The notes under the pieces were generated by a model. The model saw nothing but the letters and a program-made list of their open reading frames with translations, did not search any database and was not told the origin of the DNA. Source: a virus (Duplodnaviria; Heunggongvirae; Uroviricota; Caudoviricetes). Taken from it: a stretch of DNA of 14,225 nucleotides. Positions within the stretch are counted from its first letter, which is position 1. Each line of letters begins with the position of its first letter. The stretch lies in IMG/VR virus record IMGVR_UViG_2778261499_000007. One strand, 5' to 3'. A program made the translations under genes and the position numbers. Below are positions 157 to 13,293 of this stretch, one piece after another.

Positions 157-956
157 TTGTTGATCTCCGTGATGTCATCGAGCAACATGTTGGCCTTATC
201 GATCATCGTTTCGTGGAACTCATTCGACACAACAGACTTATCACCTGCGGCAATCTTTCCAGCAGCCTCTCCCTGTGCATATTCCCCGCGATGCTTAGCC
301 CTGGTGGATTTCGTAGCAGCGTTGCCAGCGTTGCTACCCTCTTTAGCACTGTTAACAGCACCCTTTTGCTGTGTTTTGTTCACCTTCTTACTGTTAGTGA
401 AAACTCCGGCATTTTCGACCATCTTCACCTTGAAGGTGCGGAATTCTTCAAAAGTGCAATCAATAGTGATGCAGTCGCCAGAGGAAGAGCTACGCTTAAC
501 TTCACATTTCGTCATGATGAAGTTCTCAAGAAGTCCGGCATCTTCACTAACCAGGCTAACCAGCTGGCGCTTGTCTCTCATTTCCATAAGTGCCTGAACA
601 GCGGCAGCAGGGCGCATAGATTCACGGGGATTATCTGGATCAGTGTTCCGGTCGATGTAGTTCTCTTTCCGGATGATATGAGGGGAAGAGGTGATAATAC
701 CCGTAAAGCTGACAGATTTATCTTTAATGACGGCATGGTCTGACATGGTGGTGCCATCCTCGACCGCATAGCTCGATTTCTCGACAGGGAACGAATAGCT
801 GACATCAGAGATTGAGTCAAAGAAGATAGCCACGTTATCGGTATAGTTGAAGCCATCCATTATATTTTTGTTTTGTGAATATCCCCCACACATAACAGTG
901 AATGCAGGAGATCTCGACTCAGCTTGTTTTGCAGCTGTCAGAGCATCACTAGCCAT
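153..956 (-). CDS. Putative Dit-like / baseplate-type tail protein (267 aa from Met19 of the track ORF)
   Basis: GGAGG lies 10 nt upstream of the ATG at 956. The track start at 1010 is a TTG with no SD. SFPVEKSSYAVEDGTTMSDHAVIKDKSVSFTGIITS, followed by AAVQALMEMRDKRQLVSLVSEDAGLLENFIMTKCEVKR, matches the PvEdG..isDh...P..l...G pattern plus the later L..l....lv.lvt....y.nm.i....v.r pattern of Dit-like N-terminal domains (from memory). The C-terminal third is low complexity. Confidence 0.45.
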   Translation of the reverse strand: MASDALTAAKQAESRSPAFTVMCGGYSQNKNIMDGFNYTDNVAIFFDSISDVSYSFPVEKSSYAVEDGTTMSDHAVIKDKSVSFTGIITSSPHIIRKENYIDRNTDPDNPRESMRPAAAVQALMEMRDKRQLVSLVSEDAGLLENFIMTKCEVKRSSSSGDCITIDCTFEEFRTFKVKMVENAGVFTNSKKVNKTQQKGAVNSAKEGSNAGNAATKSTRAKHRGEYAQGEAAGKIAAGDKSVVSNEFHETMIDKANMLLDDITEINK

Positions 957-4392: not shown

Positions 4393-5103
4393 ATGTTTAA
4401 AGGTCTTGTTGTTACGCTATTGGCTTGCATTGTATTTGGTCCATGGGTGTTAGTAATTGCTTTACCTATATTGCTGATCATGAGCTTAGGGAATGATATT
4501 AAAAAGCTGCATGCACAATATAAGGAGCATCCTGGAGCAGTCATAACAAGTCTGGTTATAGTCGCGGGGCTTATTGGCTGGGTCTACTTCTCTCTTCCCA
4601 CAGGAAATACAACTGCAAATGTAGAAGAGGCGAACGCACAGCATGAAGAAGTGGTTAACGTCGCCGACCTTACATGGGAGGACAGGGTAAAAGCATATAA
4701 ATATATTTATGGTGTGCTAGATTGCGATCTCTCTAAAGATATAGGATGCACAGATAAATACCAGATTCACGCCTGGCTGTGGAATCATGCAGAAAAAGGT
4801 GCTTGCAACCAGATTAAAGTGGCGGTTAACAGTGGGGCACCTACTGGGAAAAATAAAGATGTTCTGACGGTATGGTGCAAGGATGTAAAAGGCAATGATC
4901 GTTGGCTACAGATGCGCCACATGGACGGTGTAAGCATAGAAACTACACGAACGGCTCGATGGTATAACGGTGAACTCGTTCACGAAGCATGGCAGAATAA
5001 CGCCTGGATCACTGAGGGAACACTCCTGAATGTTGATATGGAAGCATTGAAGATGCTTAATGAGATGTACGGTGAAGCCGTAGAAACCTCTCCGATGAAA
5101 TAA
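4393..5103 (+). CDS. Membrane protein (236 aa) with N-terminal TM helices and a Cys/Trp-rich extracytoplasmic domain; function unknown
   Basis: Hydrophobic stretches: LVVTLLACIVFGPWVLVIALPILLIM and VITSLVIVAGLIGWVYF. Soluble C-terminal domain. Followed by a strong terminator. Confidence 0.6.
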   Translation: MFKGLVVTLLACIVFGPWVLVIALPILLIMSLGNDIKKLHAQYKEHPGAVITSLVIVAGLIGWVYFSLPTGNTTANVEEANAQHEEVVNVADLTWEDRVKAYKYIYGVLDCDLSKDIGCTDKYQIHAWLWNHAEKGACNQIKVAVNSGAPTGKNKDVLTVWCKDVKGNDRWLQMRHMDGVSIETTRTARWYNGELVHEAWQNNAWITEGTLLNVDMEALKMLNEMYGEAVETSPMK

Positions 5104-5113
5104 CCACACCTAC

Positions 5114-5140
5114 CAGGGGCCATCACGGCCCCTTTTTATT
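5114..5140 (+). terminator. Rho-independent terminator
   Basis: AGGGGCC-atcac-GGCCCCT followed by TTTTTATTT. Confidence 0.8.
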
Positions 5141-5200
5141 TATCCCCTATTTACACTCCTTTCAGTCCTGATCATCACTCCCTACCCCCTGATCAATTAA

Positions 5201-5251
5201 CCCCTATTTAAGGGGTATTTAATGGGTATTTAATGCCTATTTATTGATTTA
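5201..5251. repeat. Phased 11-bp repeats (SSSTATTTAWK, 4-5 copies)
   Basis: TATTTA starts at 5205, 5216, 5227 and 5238, an exact 11-bp period. There is a degenerate copy at about 5247 and an isolated copy at 5148. Confidence 0.7.
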
Positions 5252-6486
5252 ATCCGTTTTATGCCACAACCGCCCGGTTGACAGAGTAAGAGAGAGGGTG
5301 TAACCCTTTTTCGTAATACTAATAAAATCAATAGCTTAGCTCAATTGGCCTTTTCTCTGTTTTTGTCAAATTTAACATACCCTAAAAAACTGCAAAATCT
5401 GGCTGCAAGATTATCTGCAGCTGGATTTCTTACACCTCAATTTGTGGTATCACCCTGACTAGTTTGTGCATAAAATGAACAGTTTTTAACATTTCCTCTT
5501 CACCTGGTAACCACACAAAAAGCTAAAAACGAGGCACAGATAATCTTAGAGGCCTGTTTTCTTGTTATCACTCTGGAAACGTCGTAGAAGTGATTTTGAT
5601 GAAAGATGACCTACCCTATTACACCCCCATTTTTTGTTATCACAATTGCATCCTGTGCGGTGTATGGCTGTGTGCTGAAAGCGGTCTTGGGTGTGGGTGT
5701 CAGAAATATCCATTAGCGGTATTAATACCCGTCAGATGTTCGTCTGAGGTGCCAGGCAGGCGCTCCCCCACCTCCCTTTTTTCTTCTAACAATTCTCAAA
5801 TATCACACCACTGCCGACCACGTTACTACTCTGTTAATTCTTAAGCTTTGCTGTATGTTGTGCACATTATTTATTCAGGTGCGTGTACGTAAATTCTGGG
5901 CCTCCTTATCATGATTTTTAAATCAGATTTTGTAGTTCGGTTTCTTAGTGTAGATAAGATCTATTATGTTAAATGCAATTTTCCCAACCCTTCAAATCAA
6001 TGACTTACATGTAAGCATGCACTAACACCCCACACAGCACATTAGACGTATAGATGGCTATATCCCACATTTTTGATTGTTTTGTAGTCATTCCCCTGAT
6101 CATTTAACCAGTATAGTTTGTTCTTTGCAGACCACAAAATCGGAATTTACATCTGATTAACATAATCTGTTAGCATGATCACTATTACCCACACAACAAT
6201 AACCCCATGCAAGACTCTTCAGGCAATTTATCGGCGTGTTGGTGTGAACAGTCTTTCATGTTCTTTATGTTTTCATTGTCCTGTGTGAGGGAAGGATGGA
6301 CTGCCCCAGGGGCCACACTTATGATGCCCGGTCAACATAGCTATTGATAAAATCAACGGGTGTTGATCTGCATATTTCCCACACATGAGAGGAAATCAGA
6401 GCAAAGAGAGAGGAGAGAGGTTTGCTAGTCAAAATAGGTCAATTGACGGCTAATACAGAGTAAAAAATCAGATGCAATCACTCCCC

Positions 6487-6673
6487 ACCTGTTGGGATTT
6501 CCCGCACCTGTATAAGAATACAGTCATACTTTCCCGTTATACGGTCATACACATGATGGAATAACCTGTTGGAATTTCCTACAGGTTTAACCATACACAG
6601 GAGCTAACCTGTTGGAATTTCCTACTACTACCTGTCGGTATTTCCCACAGGTACCTGTTGGAATTTCCCACAC
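6487..6673 (+). repeat. Iteron array (5 x 21 bp, ACCTGTTGGAATTTCCCACAS); candidate replication origin
   Basis: Copies start at 6487, 6564, 6607, 6630 and 6653. The last three have a 23-bp period. Each contains an internal ACCTGT...ACAGGT dyad. An AT-rich flank (6674-6708) contains GATCTATTCTCTT on the minus strand (6683-6695), 1 mismatch from the oriC 13-mer GATCTnTTnTTTT. Confidence 0.75.
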
Positions 6674-6797
6674 TAATAGATAAAGAGAATAGATCAATAA
6701 AAAGAACTCCCCCTATAATCCCCCAACAAGGGGGGATGGGGAGGGATCAGAGAGTGGGGAAGGTTTTCTAAGGGAAAAGCTTAACCCACAAATGAAA

Positions 6798-7086
6798 GCC
6801 TAAAGAGCATTAGCGACTCTTTAGGCAATCTGTGTGTGGGGTGACAATGTATTCCATACATGACACGTCACCCAATTGTGTGTGGGGTGCTTACAGCACT
6901 TAAGCCTCTGGCTTAACCCTTCGGGCCTCTGTGTGGGAAGCGTAGTGCGATAGCACGTAGCTTTATAATGTGGAGTCCGGATAAGAGACTTCTGTTTCCA
7001 ATCCGGACCGTTTAAGCGAGGGATTCCGCTCGCCCGTGTATGCACACACGTAATAGGACGCTCAGAAATCGATTTTAAGGCCCAAA
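6798..7086 (+). other. Cluster of GC-rich hairpins (candidate structured ncRNA or single-strand initiation signal)
   Basis: GCCTAAAGAG/CTCTTTAGGC (6798-6826); GGGTGAC..GTCACCC with nested ATGTAT/ATACAT (6839-6873); CCC-TTCG-GGG context (6917-6925); GTCCGGAT/ATCCGGAC (6975-7008); GCGAG/CTCGC (7016-7033); AGGCCC/GGGCCT (7069-7086). TGTGTGTGGGGTG occurs twice (6831, 6877). Confidence 0.35.
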
Positions 7087-7231
7087 ACGGGGCCTACAGC
7101 AACCTAAACCATACTCCATAGTGCAATTGCATTGCCTGATGCTTAAATCGCGTTGTAGGGCATCTCATGAGGTTTGAGTTTAACACCCTCCAAAGTTTTA
7201 ACAAAAAGTGCTCTCCCTCCATTGTGGGCCA

Positions 7232-7261
7232 TTGACAATCTTATTGCATAAATGCTATAAG
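7232..7261 (+). promoter_or_regulatory. Promoter P1 (TTGACA-18-TATAAG)
   Basis: Read directly. Shares the ATTGACAAT motif with P2 and P3. Confidence 0.5.
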
Positions 7262-7360
7262 TGATTCTGGTTTTGACACGGTAGGGGCCATTAATAATGT
7301 TTACCCCTTTGCTGTGGACTTGCTTGCACCTATAGCACACCTAAATGATAATAATTCTCA

Positions 7361-7389
7361 TTGACAATTGGTTGACAATATGATAAGAT
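7361..7389 (+). promoter_or_regulatory. Promoter P2 (TTGACA-17-TAAGAT)
   Basis: Read directly. A second TTGACAAT lies 11 bp downstream, at 7372. Confidence 0.5.
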
Positions 7390-7424
7390 TATAAATAGGG
7401 GGAGAAACAGATCCGGAGGTCAAT

Positions 7425-7574
7425 GTGGAAATTACTGATGCAATAGCGATCATCAACCTGGCTGTACTGTGGTGCGGTGTTGCCTACATAGCCGGAGTAA
7501 CTGCAATCGACAATCTCGAAGAAAAAATGATAGATAAATACAAAAAGATTGTTGACAATTTGACGAATGTCTGA
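7425..7574 (+). CDS. Small single-TM peptide (49 aa, GTG start)
   Basis: GGAGG lies 5 nt upstream of the GTG. Translation: VEITDAIAIINLAVLWCGVAYIAGVTAIDNLEEKMIDKYKKIVDNLTNV. Not in the ORF track; translated by hand. Confidence 0.4.
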   Translation: MEITDAIAIINLAVLWCGVAYIAGVTAIDNLEEKMIDKYKKIVDNLTNV

Positions 7575-7580
7575 TAAAAT
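7552..7580 (+). promoter_or_regulatory. Promoter P3 (TTGACA-17-TAAAAT)
   Basis: Read directly. It lies inside the 3' end of the 49-aa ORF. Confidence 0.55.
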
Positions 7581-7630
7581 ATAAAGCATAGGGTAATTCT
7601 CATCATAGTGAATTTCCTTAAACAAAAATG

Positions 7631-7662
7631 CGGGGGCTTGTCTTAAGTTCCCGTTTCTTTTT
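7631..7662 (+). terminator. Intrinsic terminator / attenuator in the leader of the replication operon
   Basis: CGGGGGCTT-gtctt-AAGTTCCCG (9-bp stem including two G.U pairs) followed by TTTCTTTTT. It sits between P3 and the ATG at 7706. Confidence 0.55.
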
Positions 7663-7705
7663 AACCGTATATCGCACAGGCGGTGAGCTGACAGGAGATT
7701 GAATC

Positions 7706-7915
7706 ATGGCTAAAACCGGACCGATAAGCCAGCTGGTAAACTGGACTACTGACGAAATCGTCGAGAACGTGCTTAAAGGTAACTTTCGAAAAACTTCCGT
7801 TTATGCATTTATTCGTAAACACAAAGGGGAATACCCACATATTGAAGCGGCAATAGAAAAACTTAACTTTATCCGCATTGAGCGTGAGCTGGAAAGATAT
7901 AAACATCTACTTTGA
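7706..7915 (+). CDS. Small protein (69 aa), possible DNA-binding regulator
   Basis: AGGAG lies 8 nt upstream. First gene of the rightward operon. KTSVYAFIRKHKGEYP weakly recalls AlpA/Xis-type sTiYr.i..g.fP. Confidence 0.5.
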   Translation: MAKTGPISQLVNWTTDEIVENVLKGNFRKTSVYAFIRKHKGEYPHIEAAIEKLNFIRIERELERYKHLL

Positions 7916-7939
7916 TAAATAATCTTGGAGGATCATATT

Positions 7940-8326
7940 ATGGCAAATAACGATGAAAATTTTACTCCCTTTTTTAAACGTTTCATCAAATACACTTTTA
8001 AAAATCCGATTGCAAAAACTGCAACCAATAAAGAAAGATTTCACTTAAATGTGTTGGAGGTAACAATTTATGGTGAAATGGTAAGTTATTCTTTTAAGGA
8101 GGGTGAAGAAATAATTATCTCAGAGCTCTCGACGCAGACATTAGCAGACGATTATGATGTTACAGAGAAAACAGTAAGGTCGGCTATCAAAACATTAGAG
8201 GCTGCAGGTCTGATAAACGTTAAACGAGAACAGGGCAAATCGAATATCTACGAATTGCTAATTACCCCTGATCAGCTTGGCAAGATGTGCGATGAGCAGG
8301 GTATTAGAGAATATTTTATATATTAA
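7940..8326 (+). CDS. Winged-helix DNA-binding protein, short paralog of the Rep-like protein (128 aa)
   Basis: GGAGG lies 8 nt upstream of the ATG at 7940. The track start at 7925 is a TTG. It aligns along its whole length with the N-terminal 130 aa of the next protein (FTP.F..FI.Y.F..P.A....NK...ERF.L...E..IYG.MV...F.....I.ISE...LA.......VSAIK.LE.AGLI......G.SN.Y.LL.TPDQL..MC.E.G). Confidence 0.65.
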   Translation: MANNDENFTPFFKRFIKYTFKNPIAKTATNKERFHLNVLEVTIYGEMVSYSFKEGEEIIISELSTQTLADDYDVTEKTVRSAIKTLEAAGLINVKREQGKSNIYELLITPDQLGKMCDEQGIREYFIY

Positions 8327-8337
8327 TGGGGGGAACT

Positions 8338-9258
8338 ATGGCAGGAAATAAACTGGGGGCACCTTTTACCCCCTCTTTCGATTTCTTTATTCAGTATGAT
8401 TTTGATAAACCAGTAGCAACAACAATTTCTAATAAAAAGACTGGAACAGTTAAAGAGCGCTTCTATTTAACAGACTTTGAAATGTTGATTTATGGAAAAA
8501 TGGTGGGATTTCATTTTAACGGTGAGGGAATTTATATTTCAGAGCAAAAACTGGCAACTCAACTCAGAAAGGATCGCGGGAAAATAGTAAGCGCTATTAA
8601 ATCTCTGGAAAATGCCGGGCTTATTTCTAAAGATAGCCGGAAAGGCATGTCTAATAATTACAAATTGCTGAAAACCCCTGATCAATTGTTGGATATGTGC
8701 ATTGAGAAGGGCGTAAATATTCCAGAAGGCATCTTAGAGACTTTCGGAAAGACTGCCGCTAAAGTAGAACAGCCTCAGGAAGCCCCAAAACAAGCCACAC
8801 AGCAAGCTAAAAAGGCTAAAGTAGTGCAATTGCCTACCCAAGACACTAAAGCGCCTCAAATTAACGCTGTTAGTGACAAGCCACGCCGGGGCCGTCCTGT
8901 GAAAGATGTCACCGATGGAGGCTGGATCGTCCTGGGTGAGAGTGAGGCTAAAGGCATAATGCGATCACTGTGGGAAAGCAAATACAAAGATTTAAACAAA
9001 CGTCGCCCGATCCTTTTGTCAAAGATTCAGGAGGATTTTTACACCGCAGAAGAGGTAAGCCAACATAAAGGGAAAAGAGAGGGTGAAATCTGGAAACCGG
9101 AAGAATACTGGCATTTAACCAGACCTGTGTTTATTTTTGCAAATAAGCTTATTGGGATGGGATTTGAAATATTGTTGGATAAAACCTGCGGAGATTATCC
9201 CGAAATATTGTGGAGAAATGTTAGAAAAAATAAAAAAGGCATTTTAGAGTTTAAATAA
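8338..9258 (+). CDS. Putative replication initiator (306 aa): N-terminal winged helix plus a PRRGRP basic linker plus a C-terminal domain
   Basis: GGGGGG lies 4 nt upstream of the ATG at 8338, and the paralog alignment starts at MAGNK. The wHTH pattern is typical of plasmid/phage initiators. The iterons lie about 1.3 kb upstream. Confidence 0.55.
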   Translation: MAGNKLGAPFTPSFDFFIQYDFDKPVATTISNKKTGTVKERFYLTDFEMLIYGKMVGFHFNGEGIYISEQKLATQLRKDRGKIVSAIKSLENAGLISKDSRKGMSNNYKLLKTPDQLLDMCIEKGVNIPEGILETFGKTAAKVEQPQEAPKQATQQAKKAKVVQLPTQDTKAPQINAVSDKPRRGRPVKDVTDGGWIVLGESEAKGIMRSLWESKYKDLNKRRPILLSKIQEDFYTAEEVSQHKGKREGEIWKPEEYWHLTRPVFIFANKLIGMGFEILLDKTCGDYPEILWRNVRKNKKGILEFK

Positions 9259-9275
9259 AAACACTGATAATCTTA

Positions 9276-9289
9276 TTTTTTTTTTTTTT
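9276..9289 (+). repeat. T14 homopolymer tract
   Basis: Counted directly. It lies between the Rep-like stop and the RBS of the next small ORF. Confidence 0.9.
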
Positions 9290-9306
9290 GTTTAAGGAAA
9301 TTTAAA

Positions 9307-9453
9307 ATGTATGGCGATTTTGATTATTACCTGGAAAAGGAAAAATATTTTGAAGATGAACTATCACAACATTTTTCATATTGGGAAGAATATTGTGGTT
9401 GGTTAGCTGAAGATCCAGCAGATGAAGAAAATGATTCTGACATCCCTTATTAA
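9307..9453 (+). CDS. Highly acidic, aromatic-rich 48-aa protein
   Basis: AAGGA lies 8 nt upstream. Translation: MYGDFDYYLEKEKYFEDELSQHFSYWEEYCGWLAEDPADEENDSDIPY (18 D/E, 2 K, 0 R). Not in the ORF track; translated by hand. Confidence 0.5.
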   Translation: MYGDFDYYLEKEKYFEDELSQHFSYWEEYCGWLAEDPADEENDSDIPY

Positions 9454-9551: not shown

Positions 9552-10040
9552 ATGTTCAAATCTGATCTTTCTGATTCCCAATTTGAAAAACTGGTAGCAC
9601 TGCAGAAATATCTCCCCAGTGATGATCAACCAACACGACAGGCTAAACACTTATTAGTCGAGGGCTTTACCCCTGAATTCGTGGCGGAATATACAGGCGT
9701 TAAACTTGAGAAAGTCCAAAAACTATATAATGAGTCCTGGAATCCACGGTGTCGAGTTCCCCTCAGTGTCTACAACGAAATAGATAGAGATAGAAATGTC
9801 TTCGAAGATCGCCGCCGCAAATCTCTTTTAATGTGGAATTGTGGGATGAATATTGAAGAGATAGCAAAAGAATTAAAAGTAACCTGCTTTCATATCTGGG
9901 GCTTGTTGAGTGAAATCCTACCACGTAAGGAGCTTAATCAACGTTTGCCTAAGCCCGGTAGTCGTGCTTATCGCGAATTTATATTCATCTACCGCCGCCA
10001 TAGCAATAAAGTCCGGAAAGCAATGGCCCAGAAAGCCTAA
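9552..10040 (+). CDS. Protein with two HTH-like motifs (162 aa); function unknown
   Basis: GGAGA lies 7 nt upstream. HTH-like stretches: FTPEFVAEYTGVKLEKVQKLY and MNIEEIAKELKVTCFHIWGLL. Basic C-terminal tail. Confidence 0.6.
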   Translation: MFKSDLSDSQFEKLVALQKYLPSDDQPTRQAKHLLVEGFTPEFVAEYTGVKLEKVQKLYNESWNPRCRVPLSVYNEIDRDRNVFEDRRRKSLLMWNCGMNIEEIAKELKVTCFHIWGLLSEILPRKELNQRLPKPGSRAYREFIFIYRRHSNKVRKAMAQKA

Positions 10041-10113
10041 GTTTTATCTCTTCGATTTATTTATTTTCGACTCACTTTAACCCCTTCCGGGGCTCTAATT
10101 TAAGGAATTCCAA

Positions 10114-10557
10114 ATGTCTCAAATCGCTAAATTACTATCCCAGGTTATCAAAGCTTTCGACGCTGAAGATTCAAAAGTTCGCCAGGATCTTTTAGATGGC
10201 AAGTTTACCAACACCCTGGCATTTACCCGTGACAAAGAGCACTTCTTAAAACACAGACACCACGCTTTTGCTGAATGCAAGTCCGCTAATGGTGATGTTT
10301 TCTATGTCGATTTGGTGGTTATGGCATGTAGATTGTGGATGATTCAGGACCTTATGCGCCAACACGGTGATGATCCTCTTATCAGCATGTGGAACAGCGC
10401 CCAGGATGGCTTTGTGATTGCTGCCTTATCCAAATCAATGATTGAGGCAGAAGGGGCAAGCCTTCAGAACATGGCAGATCTCTTTGAAATAAGCGTAGGA
10501 ATGATGCAGACCATGCTCCAAGCTGTCAAACCTCTCAAACTGGTTAATCTTGATTAA
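10114..10557 (+). CDS. Hypothetical helical protein (147 aa)
   Basis: AAGGA lies 7 nt upstream. No recognisable motif. Confidence 0.55.
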   Translation: MSQIAKLLSQVIKAFDAEDSKVRQDLLDGKFTNTLAFTRDKEHFLKHRHHAFAECKSANGDVFYVDLVVMACRLWMIQDLMRQHGDDPLISMWNSAQDGFVIAALSKSMIEAEGASLQNMADLFEISVGMMQTMLQAVKPLKLVNLD

Positions 10558-11190: not shown

Positions 11191-13293
11191 ATGGCAATGA
11201 AGGAAGTAGCCAAGCTAACAAACGTTATTTACTGGGATTCTGATAAATCCAGCTGGCGAAAAGAAGTTAAACGGCTTGAGGATTATAAAAAATCCTGGAA
11301 GAAAGCTACCGACGATATAGCTAAAGCGGATTTTAAATCTAATCAGGCTGTGCTCAGAACACAAAGAACACGCGCTAAGGTGGAAGAGCAGATCGCCAGA
11401 GCACAGAAGAAACAACGTGCTCAGGCTGTCAGCCGTCTGACCGGGGGCAATAATCCGGAGCTCTCCTCTATGCGCAAGTTCTATCAGCAGCAAGCCAGAG
11501 AGGCCGCCAGACAACAAAAACTGTTAGATCGTAGTGTTGGAGATGTTCAGCACAGAAAAGCACGTGTAGGGGCCAACAGTGCACGAATCAGCAGCATGTT
11601 TGATGGCTCCCTGGTTGCTCAGTTCCAATCCAGAATTCAGAGAGTTAATGCTGATTATGCTAAAGGGGCTATTAACCTGCAGACCTATAATCAGAAAATG
11701 GCCCGACTCAGATCTGAAATGAAGATGGCAACAGCAGAGGCCGGAAAATTTCAGAGCAGACTAGACAAAGCTGCGGTAGCAGGATCAAAGCTGCATGACA
11801 ACCTGGGCAAACTCAACTCCACACTAGGCAAGATAGCTATTGGCCTTACTGCCGCTGGCTGGGGTGTTCAGCGTGCTGTTAGTGGTGCTATGGGTAGCCT
11901 TGCAGATCGCAACAGTGCGTATTTCAGCTTAATGGCCCAGAACAAGGATGATAAAGAAAAAACTGATCAGCAGATGGCCTACGTCAAAAGAATCTCTTAT
12001 GACTACGGGATGGATCAGCGTGAGACTGAAGGCGGCTTTATGCGCTTTGCTGCAGCCACACCAAGCATAAAAGAGAAAGATAAGCAGGATCTCTTTGAGG
12101 CTATGGCGATTAAAGGCCGATCAGTGGGTGCTACCGCAGACCAACAGAACAGGGCTATCGTTGCACTAGGACAAATATATAGCAAGGGCGGTCGAGTGTA
12201 TGCGGAAGAGCTTAAGGGCCAACTTTCTGAAGCCCTGGCAGGTTCTCAGGTAGATTTCACTAAGGCCGCTATCGATGCCGGAGTCATCAAGAAAGAGGAA
12301 GAATTTAATAAAGCCCTTGAAGATGGCAAGATCACCATGGACAAGCTTCTTCCTTCTCTGGTGAAAATCTGGGGTGCTGCAAAAGAAACTAAAGCTTTTG
12401 CTGAATCCATGAAACAGCCAGAAGTAGCAATGCAGCGCATGAAAAACAGCTTTAACGAGCTGGCGATTCAGTTTATGGGTGTTGTGGATCCTGCAGATGG
12501 CGTTATTAGCTTATCTGAATCTCTAATCTCCATCTTCGAAGACCTCACCACTGATATGGACGGCAGCGGGAGCGCGGCAAAACAGTTCGGTGAGGCAGTC
12601 GGGGCTGCCATGCGGGAGATCATGTATTGGGTAGGCTTCGCTAAGGGATATATCGAGATTAAGGCTAAAGAGTTCGGCATGACCAGTGAGGAAGTCGGAG
12701 GATGGATCGGCAAGCTGGTTGTTGCAATCGCAGGTCTGAAGATCATCGGCACACTTCTTTCTCCGTTTACCGGACTGATTTCACTTGTCACACAGCTGAT
12801 AGCCTTGTTAGGTAAAATCCCTGGTATGAGCAAGCTTCTGGCTTCTGCCTCAGGTGGAACGGCAACAGGAGCAGCGGTCATCAGTGCAGGATCTAACGCT
12901 GAAAGAAGTTTCATTGATGGCAAGACGCAGGAAATGAGTAAGGAGAACTCAAAACAGGGTGCTTTGTTTGAGCTGGGAAGATTTGTTAGCAATGCTGGCG
13001 CACTATTCACACCTGGCGGTGATACTGGTCCTTTGTTCGATCAGGTCAGAGGCTGGTTTAATAAAGGGCCAACATTGACAGTAGACACTGGCATCAGACC
13101 AACACCAACGGGTGGCATAGCTATCCAGAATGGTGGATATCAACCAGTCCAAGTAAATGTAGCCCCACAAGGTGAGATTTCCGGCAAATGGGAGATAACC
13201 ATCGATGAGGGGGGAATTGCCAGGGTAATTCAGAAGGAAGTCAGCGATCAGTTGGATTGGAAAGCCACGCAGGAATCTAACCAGCTTTTCTAA
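11191..13293 (+). CDS. Tail tape measure protein (700 aa)
   Basis: GAGG lies 6 nt upstream. Long coiled-coil N-terminus. Conserved tape-measure core: ADQQNRAIVALGQIYSKGGRVYAEELKGQLSEALAGSQVDFTKAAIDAGV. Gly/Ala-rich hydrophobic segments: GKLVVAIAGLKIIGTLLSPFTGLISLVTQLIALLG. Confidence 0.85.
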   Translation: MAMKEVAKLTNVIYWDSDKSSWRKEVKRLEDYKKSWKKATDDIAKADFKSNQAVLRTQRTRAKVEEQIARAQKKQRAQAVSRLTGGNNPELSSMRKFYQQQAREAARQQKLLDRSVGDVQHRKARVGANSARISSMFDGSLVAQFQSRIQRVNADYAKGAINLQTYNQKMARLRSEMKMATAEAGKFQSRLDKAAVAGSKLHDNLGKLNSTLGKIAIGLTAAGWGVQRAVSGAMGSLADRNSAYFSLMAQNKDDKEKTDQQMAYVKRISYDYGMDQRETEGGFMRFAAATPSIKEKDKQDLFEAMAIKGRSVGATADQQNRAIVALGQIYSKGGRVYAEELKGQLSEALAGSQVDFTKAAIDAGVIKKEEEFNKALEDGKITMDKLLPSLVKIWGAAKETKAFAESMKQPEVAMQRMKNSFNELAIQFMGVVDPADGVISLSESLISIFEDLTTDMDGSGSAAKQFGEAVGAAMREIMYWVGFAKGYIEIKAKEFGMTSEEVGGWIGKLVVAIAGLKIIGTLLSPFTGLISLVTQLIALLGKIPGMSKLLASASGGTATGAAVISAGSNAERSFIDGKTQEMSKENSKQGALFELGRFVSNAGALFTPGGDTGPLFDQVRGWFNKGPTLTVDTGIRPTPTGGIAIQNGGYQPVQVNVAPQGEISGKWEITIDEGGIARVIQKEVSDQLDWKATQESNQLF

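Follow-up and report, generated by a model that had tools for sequence, protein, structure and literature searches.

In phage lambda, the initiator O reads dyad-symmetric iterons through an N-terminal winged helix, which is joined by a flexible linker to a C-terminal domain for the next replication factor. The initiators pi of plasmid R6K and TrfA of RK2 also exist as shorter isoforms, which start internally in the same open reading frame (ORF), keep the C-terminal part and have the same DNA specificity, and N-terminal, DNA-binding-only fragments of geminivirus Rep have been engineered that inhibit the cognate replicon in a strain-specific manner. The usual explanation for incompatibility between iteron replicons is that they have iterons or a Rep in common. 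Here we analyse a replication locus of the window, i.e. the whole stretch of 14,225 nt in IMG/VR record IMGVR_UViG_2778261499_000007 (Caudoviricetes), in which a gene for a protein of 128 amino acids (aa), the short gene, lies just before a gene for a Rep-like protein of 306 aa, the long gene or rep. The short protein appears to be the origin-binding domain of a replicon type, A, other than the type of the element that carries it, B.

In the PLE satellites of Vibrio, variation in the RepA_N domain of the initiator goes together with variation in the origin, and this domain has repeatedly been exchanged, the C-terminal domain being a separate module (PMC8263062). Phage ICP1 encodes Odn, a copy of the PLE RepA_N domain fused to a nuclease, which attacks the origin, and PLEs escape Odn by exchange of the replicon module (PMC8263062). 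The ends of the window overlap by 77 nt; it is therefore a circular contig, with a circle of ca. 14,148 bp. Its relatives are non-mobilizable plasmids of 13.3–14.4 kb from Escherichia coli and E. albertii, sampled here as five PLSDB records, seven in complete RefSeq genomes and 53 clusters of Rep proteins.

The resident initiator and its iterons

In an AlphaFold2 model of the long protein, built from 37 family sequences, residues 11–140 form a folded N-terminal domain (block mean predicted local distance difference test (pLDDT) of 64–90), residues 141–188, with the PRRGRP motif inside, are predicted to be disordered (pLDDT <50) and residues 190–306 constitute a folded C-terminal domain. The model agrees with the first-pass annotation of the locus, according to which the short protein ends where the long one enters a linker with PRRGRP, followed by a C-terminal domain. 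The RGRP core of this motif is limited to one of three types of C-terminal module in the family, the other two having a basic RRERRRD patch at this place. The modelled N-terminal domain resembles the extended winged helix of the N-terminal domain (NTD) of DnaD and of RepA_N initiators: top matches in Foldseek include the RepA_N N-terminal domains 4pql, 4pt7 and 5kbj, and many MarR-like repressors fall in the same score range. A sequence search of the PDB with the family profile returned generic winged helices alone (E 0.047 or worse), and the C-terminal domain showed neither a detectable relative nor a fold match.

Library matches of the long protein were weak and covered only the winged helix. 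The best one in Pfam was to HTH_36 (19.7 bits, under the cut-off of 25), with neither RepA_N nor Phage_rep_O at E up to 0.1, and those in PHROG (270, 678, 345 and 186) are to replication initiation, O-like and DnaD-like families. RepA, pi, RepE and DnaD-like folds had been put forward for comparison in the first-pass annotation; structure prediction and Foldseek bear out the likeness to DnaD-NTD, together with that to RepA_N. The protein does not combine two tandem winged helices with a Pfam Rep_3 match, as would a Rep_3 or WH1-WH2 initiator (RepA, pi, RepE), nor an N-terminal winged helix with a DnaD/DnaB_2 C-terminal domain, as would a DnaD-like primosomal protein. It does have a winged-helix origin-binding domain with similarity to initiator families and a matched iteron array on the same replicon.

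This array consists of five iterons (Table 1), of which the last three are in tandem, with a spacing of 23 bp and dyad arms ACCTGT/ACAGGT. In each of the 29 tabulated loci, the recognition helix of the long protein varies in step with three tandem repeats of 23 bp, which lie just 5′ of a conserved CTAATAGATAAA; seven helix classes pair with seven classes of iteron: GKIVSAIKS with core CTGTTGGAATTTCC (type B, this window), GKIASAIKS with ATGCTGGNATTTCC, RKIIESIKT with CTGAAGATTTCTCAC, RKIRDSIKS with CGGAAGATTTCTCCG, EKTVRSAIKT with CGGTAAATATTTCCG (type A), PKTVRTAIHS with GGTAAAAATTACCG and RPTVINSIKS with CTGTAAAATATTTTAC. All relatives with a GKIVSAIKS helix in the long Rep have the type-B array, and other helices go with other arrays; at one helix position, Arg occurs with CGG, and Ile or Val with CTG or TGA. 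We predict that the N-terminal module of the long protein reads the 23-bp iterons of the resident array. Among the 53 Rep clusters, the N-terminal alleles are found in many combinations with the three C-terminal types, and a family-wide linker motif, QEAPKQATQQ, is the recombination joint between the two modules. Because of the co-variation of helix and iterons and of this free recombination at the linker, it is well supported by the sequence comparisons that the long protein is an iteron-binding replication initiator, made up of an origin-specific N-terminal module, a disordered linker and an exchangeable C-terminal effector. Its initial description as Rep-like thus stands, on the co-variation as well as on the RepA_N/DnaD-like extended winged helix given by the fold search.

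Iteron-like sites of other classes were also seen. Single ones are situated within the 260–420 nt upstream of CTAATAGATAAA, 5′ of the own triple array, in relatives L002, L005, L006, L009 and L010; L010 has three B-like sites upstream of a C2 array that itself contains extra C2-like copies, and one B-like site (CCCCCACCTGTTGG[GT]ATTTCC) is found in most relatives irrespective of their Rep type. These off-class single sites may be relics of swaps or decoys that titrate rival Reps.

The short gene and its putative targets

Both ORFs described as tandem paralogs at 7940–9258 in the first-pass annotation were found at these positions, and the short protein does align throughout with the N-terminal domain of the long one (BLASTP E 2e-29; residues 1–122 against 1–126); the identity, taken by eye as 35–40 %, amounts to 48 % (62/130). 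Its similarity to the N-terminal domain of type-A Reps is far higher, being 79 % identical to that of pJNE25-003_2 (E 3e-67), and its recognition helix, EKTVRSAIKT, is identical to that of type-A Reps, the resident one being GKIVSAIKS. Since the identity to type-A domains is 79 %, versus 48 % to the neighbouring gene, the short gene is not a local duplicate, and a tandem duplication in situ was rejected. The domain closes with a conserved MCDEQGI motif, after which the short protein has only five more residues, without the linker or the C-terminal domain, and no extra domain beyond the DNA-binding one was found in Pfam, NCBIfam or PADLOC. As far as can be judged from its sequence, it is the extended winged-helix origin-binding domain of replicon type A, and its description as a DNA-binding-only paralog holds.

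The genes had also been said to share a TAATG overlap. This sequence is indeed present, at 8324–8328, with its ATG (8326) in frame in the window; the overlap, however, is not conserved. The start common to all relatives (MA[GNS]N...) is ATG 8338, 11 nt after the stop codon of the short gene and behind a G-rich Shine-Dalgarno, and in L010, which has one G less, the first of the two ATGs is no longer in frame, so that the genes are better described as closely adjacent than as conservedly overlapping.

By the helix-iteron code of the family, the recognition sequence of the short protein is predicted to be CGGTAAAWATTWCCG. With up to 3 mismatches allowed, the window contains no iteron of type A, A′, C, C2 or D, and a comparison of three carriers did not reveal any carrier-specific 12-mer outside the short gene. 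A site in cis for the short protein was rejected on both counts, which also leave unsupported the earlier suggestion that it might recognise a second family of sites in the element.

The same short cassette adjoins Reps of type B (the window, L022 and others), B″ (L014), C (L024) and C2 (L010), and the iterons of its carriers always match the long protein. Eight of the nine complete relatives have no short gene at all, the 69–71-aa ORF being directly followed by rep, and the ninth has in this slot a different allele, of type E and 121 aa. Because the eight include L007, with a type-B Rep and iterons as in the window, the short gene is not needed for replication. These observations bear on the possibility, favoured in the first-pass annotation, of a built-in regulator of the resident replicon, which would compete for the resident iterons or form mixed dimers or tetramers with the N-terminal domain of Rep (poisoning, handcuffing). 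The location of the gene, immediately upstream of rep and co-transcribed with it, would suit such a role, as would the ATTTCC core common to A and B iterons and the 48 % identity over the entire domain, including the N-terminal extension, which mediates oligomerisation in DnaD-NTD and RepA_N proteins. However, the resident iterons differ between carriers without a corresponding change in the helix of the short protein, and a built-in regulator is rather unlikely because its target is absent, eight of the nine relatives, type-B L007 among them, do not have the gene and the cassette occurs beside four Rep specificities. Additionally, mixed oligomers are implausible for the type-X cassettes described below, because these align loosely with resident Reps, with long insertions.

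The short gene looks like a maintained and functional gene, going by the comparison of its copies. All 16 variants aligned have 128 aa, with residues 45–87 invariant, and share an insertion of three residues (ELS) and a REYFIY tail, neither of them present in the full-length Reps compared; since these two traits are private to the short copies, the short lineage seems to have persisted on its own. Its Shine-Dalgarno, GGAGGA, is strong and private to the cassette, and the 5′ junction is identical in other carriers of type-A and type-E cassettes. Nonsynonymous and synonymous divergence between the copies in the window and in L010 are dN 0.081 and dS 0.454 (dN/dS 0.18), similar to the dN/dS of 0.12–0.20 between full-length N-terminal domains. 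The exact 128-aa protein is listed in 62 blocks of a public assembly collection, mostly in contigs of 10–20 kb; it belongs to a cluster of 19 members at 90 %, besides which there is another cluster with 87 % identity. In view of the constant length, of the dN/dS value and of the private, conserved Shine-Dalgarno and tail, a decaying pseudogene was rejected.

The same data make it quite improbable that the cassette is a neutral scar of replicon swapping, that is, the 5′ part of an old rep that was left behind by an illegitimate crossover in an iteron-to-rep exchange and has been hitch-hiking since. The family is certainly highly mosaic, the cassette ends at a domain boundary, the short intergenic Shine-Dalgarno region being repeated between it and rep, and leftovers do persist in the family, because L005 keeps a type-A array that no longer matches its Rep. 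Nevertheless, the 128-aa ORF is intact in the 16 variants and across lineages separated by a dS of up to 0.45, its non-homologous tail is conserved along with the strong Shine-Dalgarno, and three types of cassette occupy the same slot.

In Pfam, the short protein matches HTH_36, HTH_11 (27.9, cut-off 25) and GntR (27.4, cut-off 27) just over the cut-offs, as well as PaaX (26.3, cut-off 24.8), over 35–65 helix-turn-helix residues only; NCBIfam and PADLOC returned generic helix-turn-helix matches alone, far below the cut-offs in NCBIfam, and its PHROG matches (270, 391 and 428) are replication initiators. As to membership of both proteins in a non-replication family, an outcome that the first-pass annotation had regarded as fatal to its reading, PHROG initiator families match both, and the Pfam matches are to generic winged helices, weak for the long protein and barely above cut-off for the short one. 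A transcription factor with another target, i.e. a repurposed winged helix controlling genes of the element, the host or a helper phage, would be in keeping with the generic repressor-like matches (HTH_11, GntR, PaaX, ArsR in Pfam and NCBIfam), with the private insertion and tail, which show an evolution of its own in the short lineage, and with type E, which has no known full-length Rep counterpart. We nonetheless find this explanation unlikely: no linked operator is evident, because there is no carrier-specific 12-mer outside the gene, type-A Reps have the very same recognition helix, and the genome of a Vequintavirus contains no clustered type-A or type-X sites. The 139,943-bp sequence of phage SophiaRose gave 0–1 matches per motif at ≤2 mismatches, the same as shuffled sequence, and helper-phage DNA was rejected as a target.

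The slot between the 69-aa ORF and rep can be occupied by cassettes of other types. Besides type E (121 aa, eight sequences), we found type X (166–172 aa, 49 sequences in three clusters), which adjoins Reps of types B, C and A′ and has a dN/dS of 0.24–0.40, two nearly identical copies being set aside. The type-X cassette corresponds to the N-terminal domain of the unusual Rep of L005 (NZ_CP020521.1, 10592–11503, minus strand), which consists of a type-X winged helix and the family linker, without the usual C-terminal domain. L005 contains three private TATCAAYATATCAA repeats, 105–182 nt downstream of the retained type-A array mismatched to its Rep, and these repeats are absent from the carriers of X cassettes. 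Because type-X cassettes sit in the same slot and the repeats of their full-length Rep are absent, orphan origin-binding domains whose type differs from that of the resident origin are a recurrent trait of the family. A search of the literature for natural DNA-binding-only paralogs of Rep proteins found none.

The most plausible role of the short protein, though one still short of probable, is a block, in trans, of the type-A origins of relatives in the same cell. The gene just precedes rep, is transcribed with it and has its own ribosome-binding site, and its product would act on the iterons of presumed co-resident or incoming type-A relatives; an action in trans is proposed because the predicted target is absent from the carrier element. 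With no catalytic domain, its effect, if any, would be by occupancy alone, and an origin occupied by a protein without linker and effector domain would fail to initiate. The outcome would be one-sided incompatibility with, or exclusion of, type-A relatives. The incompatibility factor imagined in the first-pass annotation would hence survive in an altered form, aimed at relatives of another type; as a factor against the resident origin, where it was seen as a competitor for the resident iterons, it does not agree with the type-A helix, the four resident specificities and the eight relatives without the gene. In favour of the block in trans, Odn of ICP1 is a published precedent, the target class is abundant, with 95 sequences in the cluster of full-length type-A Reps, and one Vequintavirus contig has captured a truncated Rep of the family (see below). 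A second initiator or co-initiator for another origin, acting for instance during helper infection, would likewise make use of a Rep-type origin-binding domain expressed along with Rep, but is highly improbable, given that the short protein does not have the linker and C-terminal domain found in every full-length Rep of the family, the element has no cognate sites and most relatives have no short gene.

Several points weigh against a block in trans. The specificity of the short protein is a prediction, read from co-variation alone, and A and B iterons have ATTTCC as a common core, which makes cross-binding possible. That the type in the slot never equals the resident type is drawn from some eight independent combinations, a number at which this is likely by chance. 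Recombination with full-length alleles may import purified variation and so lower dN/dS, and the wing segments are mosaic. Finally, X cassettes are common and the matching full-length X replicon is rare (one sequence, in five contigs), and a full-length type-E Rep was searched for and none was found; these facts on X and E fit a target-directed weapon poorly, unless the targets themselves are rare or extinct.

A wider and more doubtful proposal is that the slot is an armoury of exchangeable, effector-less copies of the origin-binding domains of relatives (A, E and X), which would shut down otherwise compatible competitors for the same cell and helper phage. Such interference would drive the diversification, into seven classes or more, of Rep helices and iterons, and helper phages might capture fragments, as in the phage contig described below. 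Were this the case, it would represent a protein-based, sequence-specific interference with replication between sibling satellites. If the block of type-A origins is real, a conserved origin-binding domain that is encoded separately and directed against a different type of replicon would be a new way of directional exclusion of a relative, and would provide a selective force behind the fast joint diversification of Rep and iterons that is seen here as well as in PLE satellites. Experimentally, the system is tractable, with a 14-kb plasmid of E. coli, domains of ca. 130 aa, 23-bp sites and natural variants with and without each cassette.

The rep module and the plasmid family

The coordinates of the features discussed are collected in Table 1. 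The G-rich Shine-Dalgarno before the long gene repeats the sequence found 5′ of rep in single-rep relatives. In the leader of the operon, a terminator-like hairpin starts ca. 50 nt after the near-consensus promoter, and the two, ahead of the 69-aa ORF, could produce a small RNA or a leader of the rep operon controlled by read-through. The 69-aa ORF had no family match in the library scans.

Table 1. Location of the features of the window, by position
Feature	Position	Strand	Basis or remark
Dit-like "baseplate" protein	153–1010	minus	encoded by window and family plasmids
Major capsid protein	1544–2584	minus	encoded by window and family plasmids
Resident iteron array, type B	6485–6671	+	repeat search; five copies of ca. 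21–23 bp, ACCTGTTGGAATTTCC[CT]AC
Second sigma-70-like promoter	7361–7389		consensus scan 10/12, pattern match only
Sigma-70-like promoter, best upstream of rep operon	7552–7580	+	TTGACA-17-TAAAAT with TG; consensus scan 11/12, pattern match only
Inverted repeat, left arm	7604–7628	+	in operon leader
Terminator-like hairpin and T-run	7630–7664	+	consensus scan; in leader, just 5′ of 69-aa ORF
69-aa ORF	7706–7915	+	first gene of operon; 69–71 aa in all relatives
Shine-Dalgarno of short gene, GGAGGA	7927–7932	+	read from sequence; 7 nt 5′ of ATG
Short gene, 128 aa	7940–8326	+	ORF; ATG 7940, TAA 8324–8326
Short gene, recognition helix	8162–8209	+	TEKTVRSAIKTLEAAG
Shine-Dalgarno of long gene, G-rich	8329–8334	+	junction alignment
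Long gene, 306 aa	8338–9258	+	ORF; ATG 8338, TAA 9256–9258
Long gene, N-terminal origin-binding domain	8338–8742	+	residues 1–135; replicon type B
Long gene, recognition helix	ca. 8575–8619	+	RGKIVSAIKSLENAG
Long gene, disordered Q/K/A/P-rich linker	8758–8901	+	residues 141–188; pLDDT <50
PRRGRP	8881–8898	+	residues 182–187 of long protein; in linker
Long gene, C-terminal domain, type 1, and stop	8905–9258	+	residues 190–306, ends ILEFK; presumed effector module
Inverted repeat, right arm	9285–9309	+	spans Shine-Dalgarno and AUG of 48-aa ORF
48-aa ORF, very acidic	9307–9453	+	directly after rep; conserved in almost all relatives
Tape-measure protein	11191–13293		encoded by window and family plasmids

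A 25-nt inverted repeat flanks the entire module of 69-aa ORF, short gene and rep, with the iteron core AATTTCCT in both arms. The arms co-vary among relatives in two haplotypes, in each of which they still pair with one another, and in L024 an indel of 1 nt is compensated; cognate duplexes reach −22 to −24 kcal/mol, versus −9 to −13.5 for mismatched arms. Possible roles of this repeat are a long-range pairing in the mRNA or a boundary for module exchange. A homopolymer of ca. 15 T lies between rep and the 48-aa ORF (9276–9291), in the region of the right arm, where relatives have 5–8 T; it may be hypervariable, or an effect of sequencing or assembly. The 48-aa ORF ends in DSDIPY, which may resemble the C-terminal tip of E. 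coli SSB (DDDIPF). The atypical Rep of L005 ends in a fused DSAIPY tail, like that of the 48-aa ORF.

Upstream of the module, ca. 2.6 kb of the window (5100–7700) have no ORF of more than 84 aa and yet are well conserved among relatives; this region contains the iterons, G/C-rich palindromes (ca. 6715–6760) and, several times over, the motif CCCCTGATCA. Scanning of the whole window for Rfam families and tRNAs found nothing. Relative L002 (NZ_CP043822.1), a "plasmid" of 39,610 bp, consists of three head-to-tail copies of a unit of ca. 13.2 kb that are slightly unlike, with for example some capsid and tape-measure genes truncated, and is either a concatemer or the assembly of a multimer.

In 50,697 phage records, the sole relatives of the capsid protein were capsid proteins of the Vequintavirinae type (ca. 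24 % identity), and megablast of the whole window against these records gave no match. Window positions 511–768 show 66 % nucleotide identity with gp47 of phage SophiaRose, and the tape-measure gene matches that of this phage over 36 nt, at 89 % identity. A 40,370-bp contig (L012, Logan SRR32969907) from a Vequintavirus, 97 % identical to SophiaRose, contains a segment of 760 bp (9758–10517) that is 99.5 % identical to plasmid pVTB448v-4 and comprises a 71-aa ORF and a type-A′ Rep truncated at 173 aa. The segment replaces 1.6 kb with four phage genes, with junction overlaps of 23 nt and 10 nt. A tblastn search with the phage-borne Rep fragment found no match among the phage records, so that the capture is a single case, and the contig is either a real recombinant of phage and plasmid or an assembly artefact. 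On account of the capsid, of the similarities to SophiaRose and of this phage contig with a plasmid segment, we regard the family as a candidate plasmid-borne satellite of Vequintavirus phages. As plasmids that have capsid, tape-measure and Dit-like genes of their own, in distant relationship to those of Vequintavirus phages, its members would be candidate satellites of virulent coliphages. The family looks undescribed, and our literature search for it, or for Vequintavirus satellites, gave nothing relevant.

Comparison with described initiators and their antagonists

The long protein is like lambda O and other O-type initiators of lambdoid phages in its two-module organisation, with N- and C-terminal modules that recombine between relatives, and in its family's matches to the PHROG families of "replication initiation O-like" proteins 391, 678 and 345. 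It differs from lambda O in that the family protein does not match Phage_rep_O in Pfam, in that its iterons are situated ca. 1.7 kb upstream of the gene and not inside it, and in its C-terminal domain, without a detectable relative. Lambda, moreover, is not known to have a separate DNA-binding-only copy, and the element in the window has one. With the RepA_N initiators of Gram-positive plasmids and Vibrio PLEs, the long protein shares the fold predicted for its N-terminal domain, an extended winged helix related to DnaD-NTD.

As in R6K and RK2, there are two sizes of initiator-related protein per replicon, with possible regulatory roles. Unlike the isoforms of pi and TrfA, however, the short protein comes from a separate gene, contains the N-terminal domain only and has a different predicted specificity. 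It also differs from the fragments of geminivirus Rep, which are laboratory constructs directed at the same type of replicon, in being encoded by a natural, conserved gene of a type different from the resident one. The closest parallel to the role proposed here is Odn of ICP1, in that a putative antagonist carries the origin-binding domain of a rival Rep, here 79 % identical to a sister type-A N-terminal domain; but whereas Odn is encoded by the phage and has a T5orf172 nuclease domain, the short protein is the product of a sister element, or of the element itself, and is devoid of a catalytic domain.

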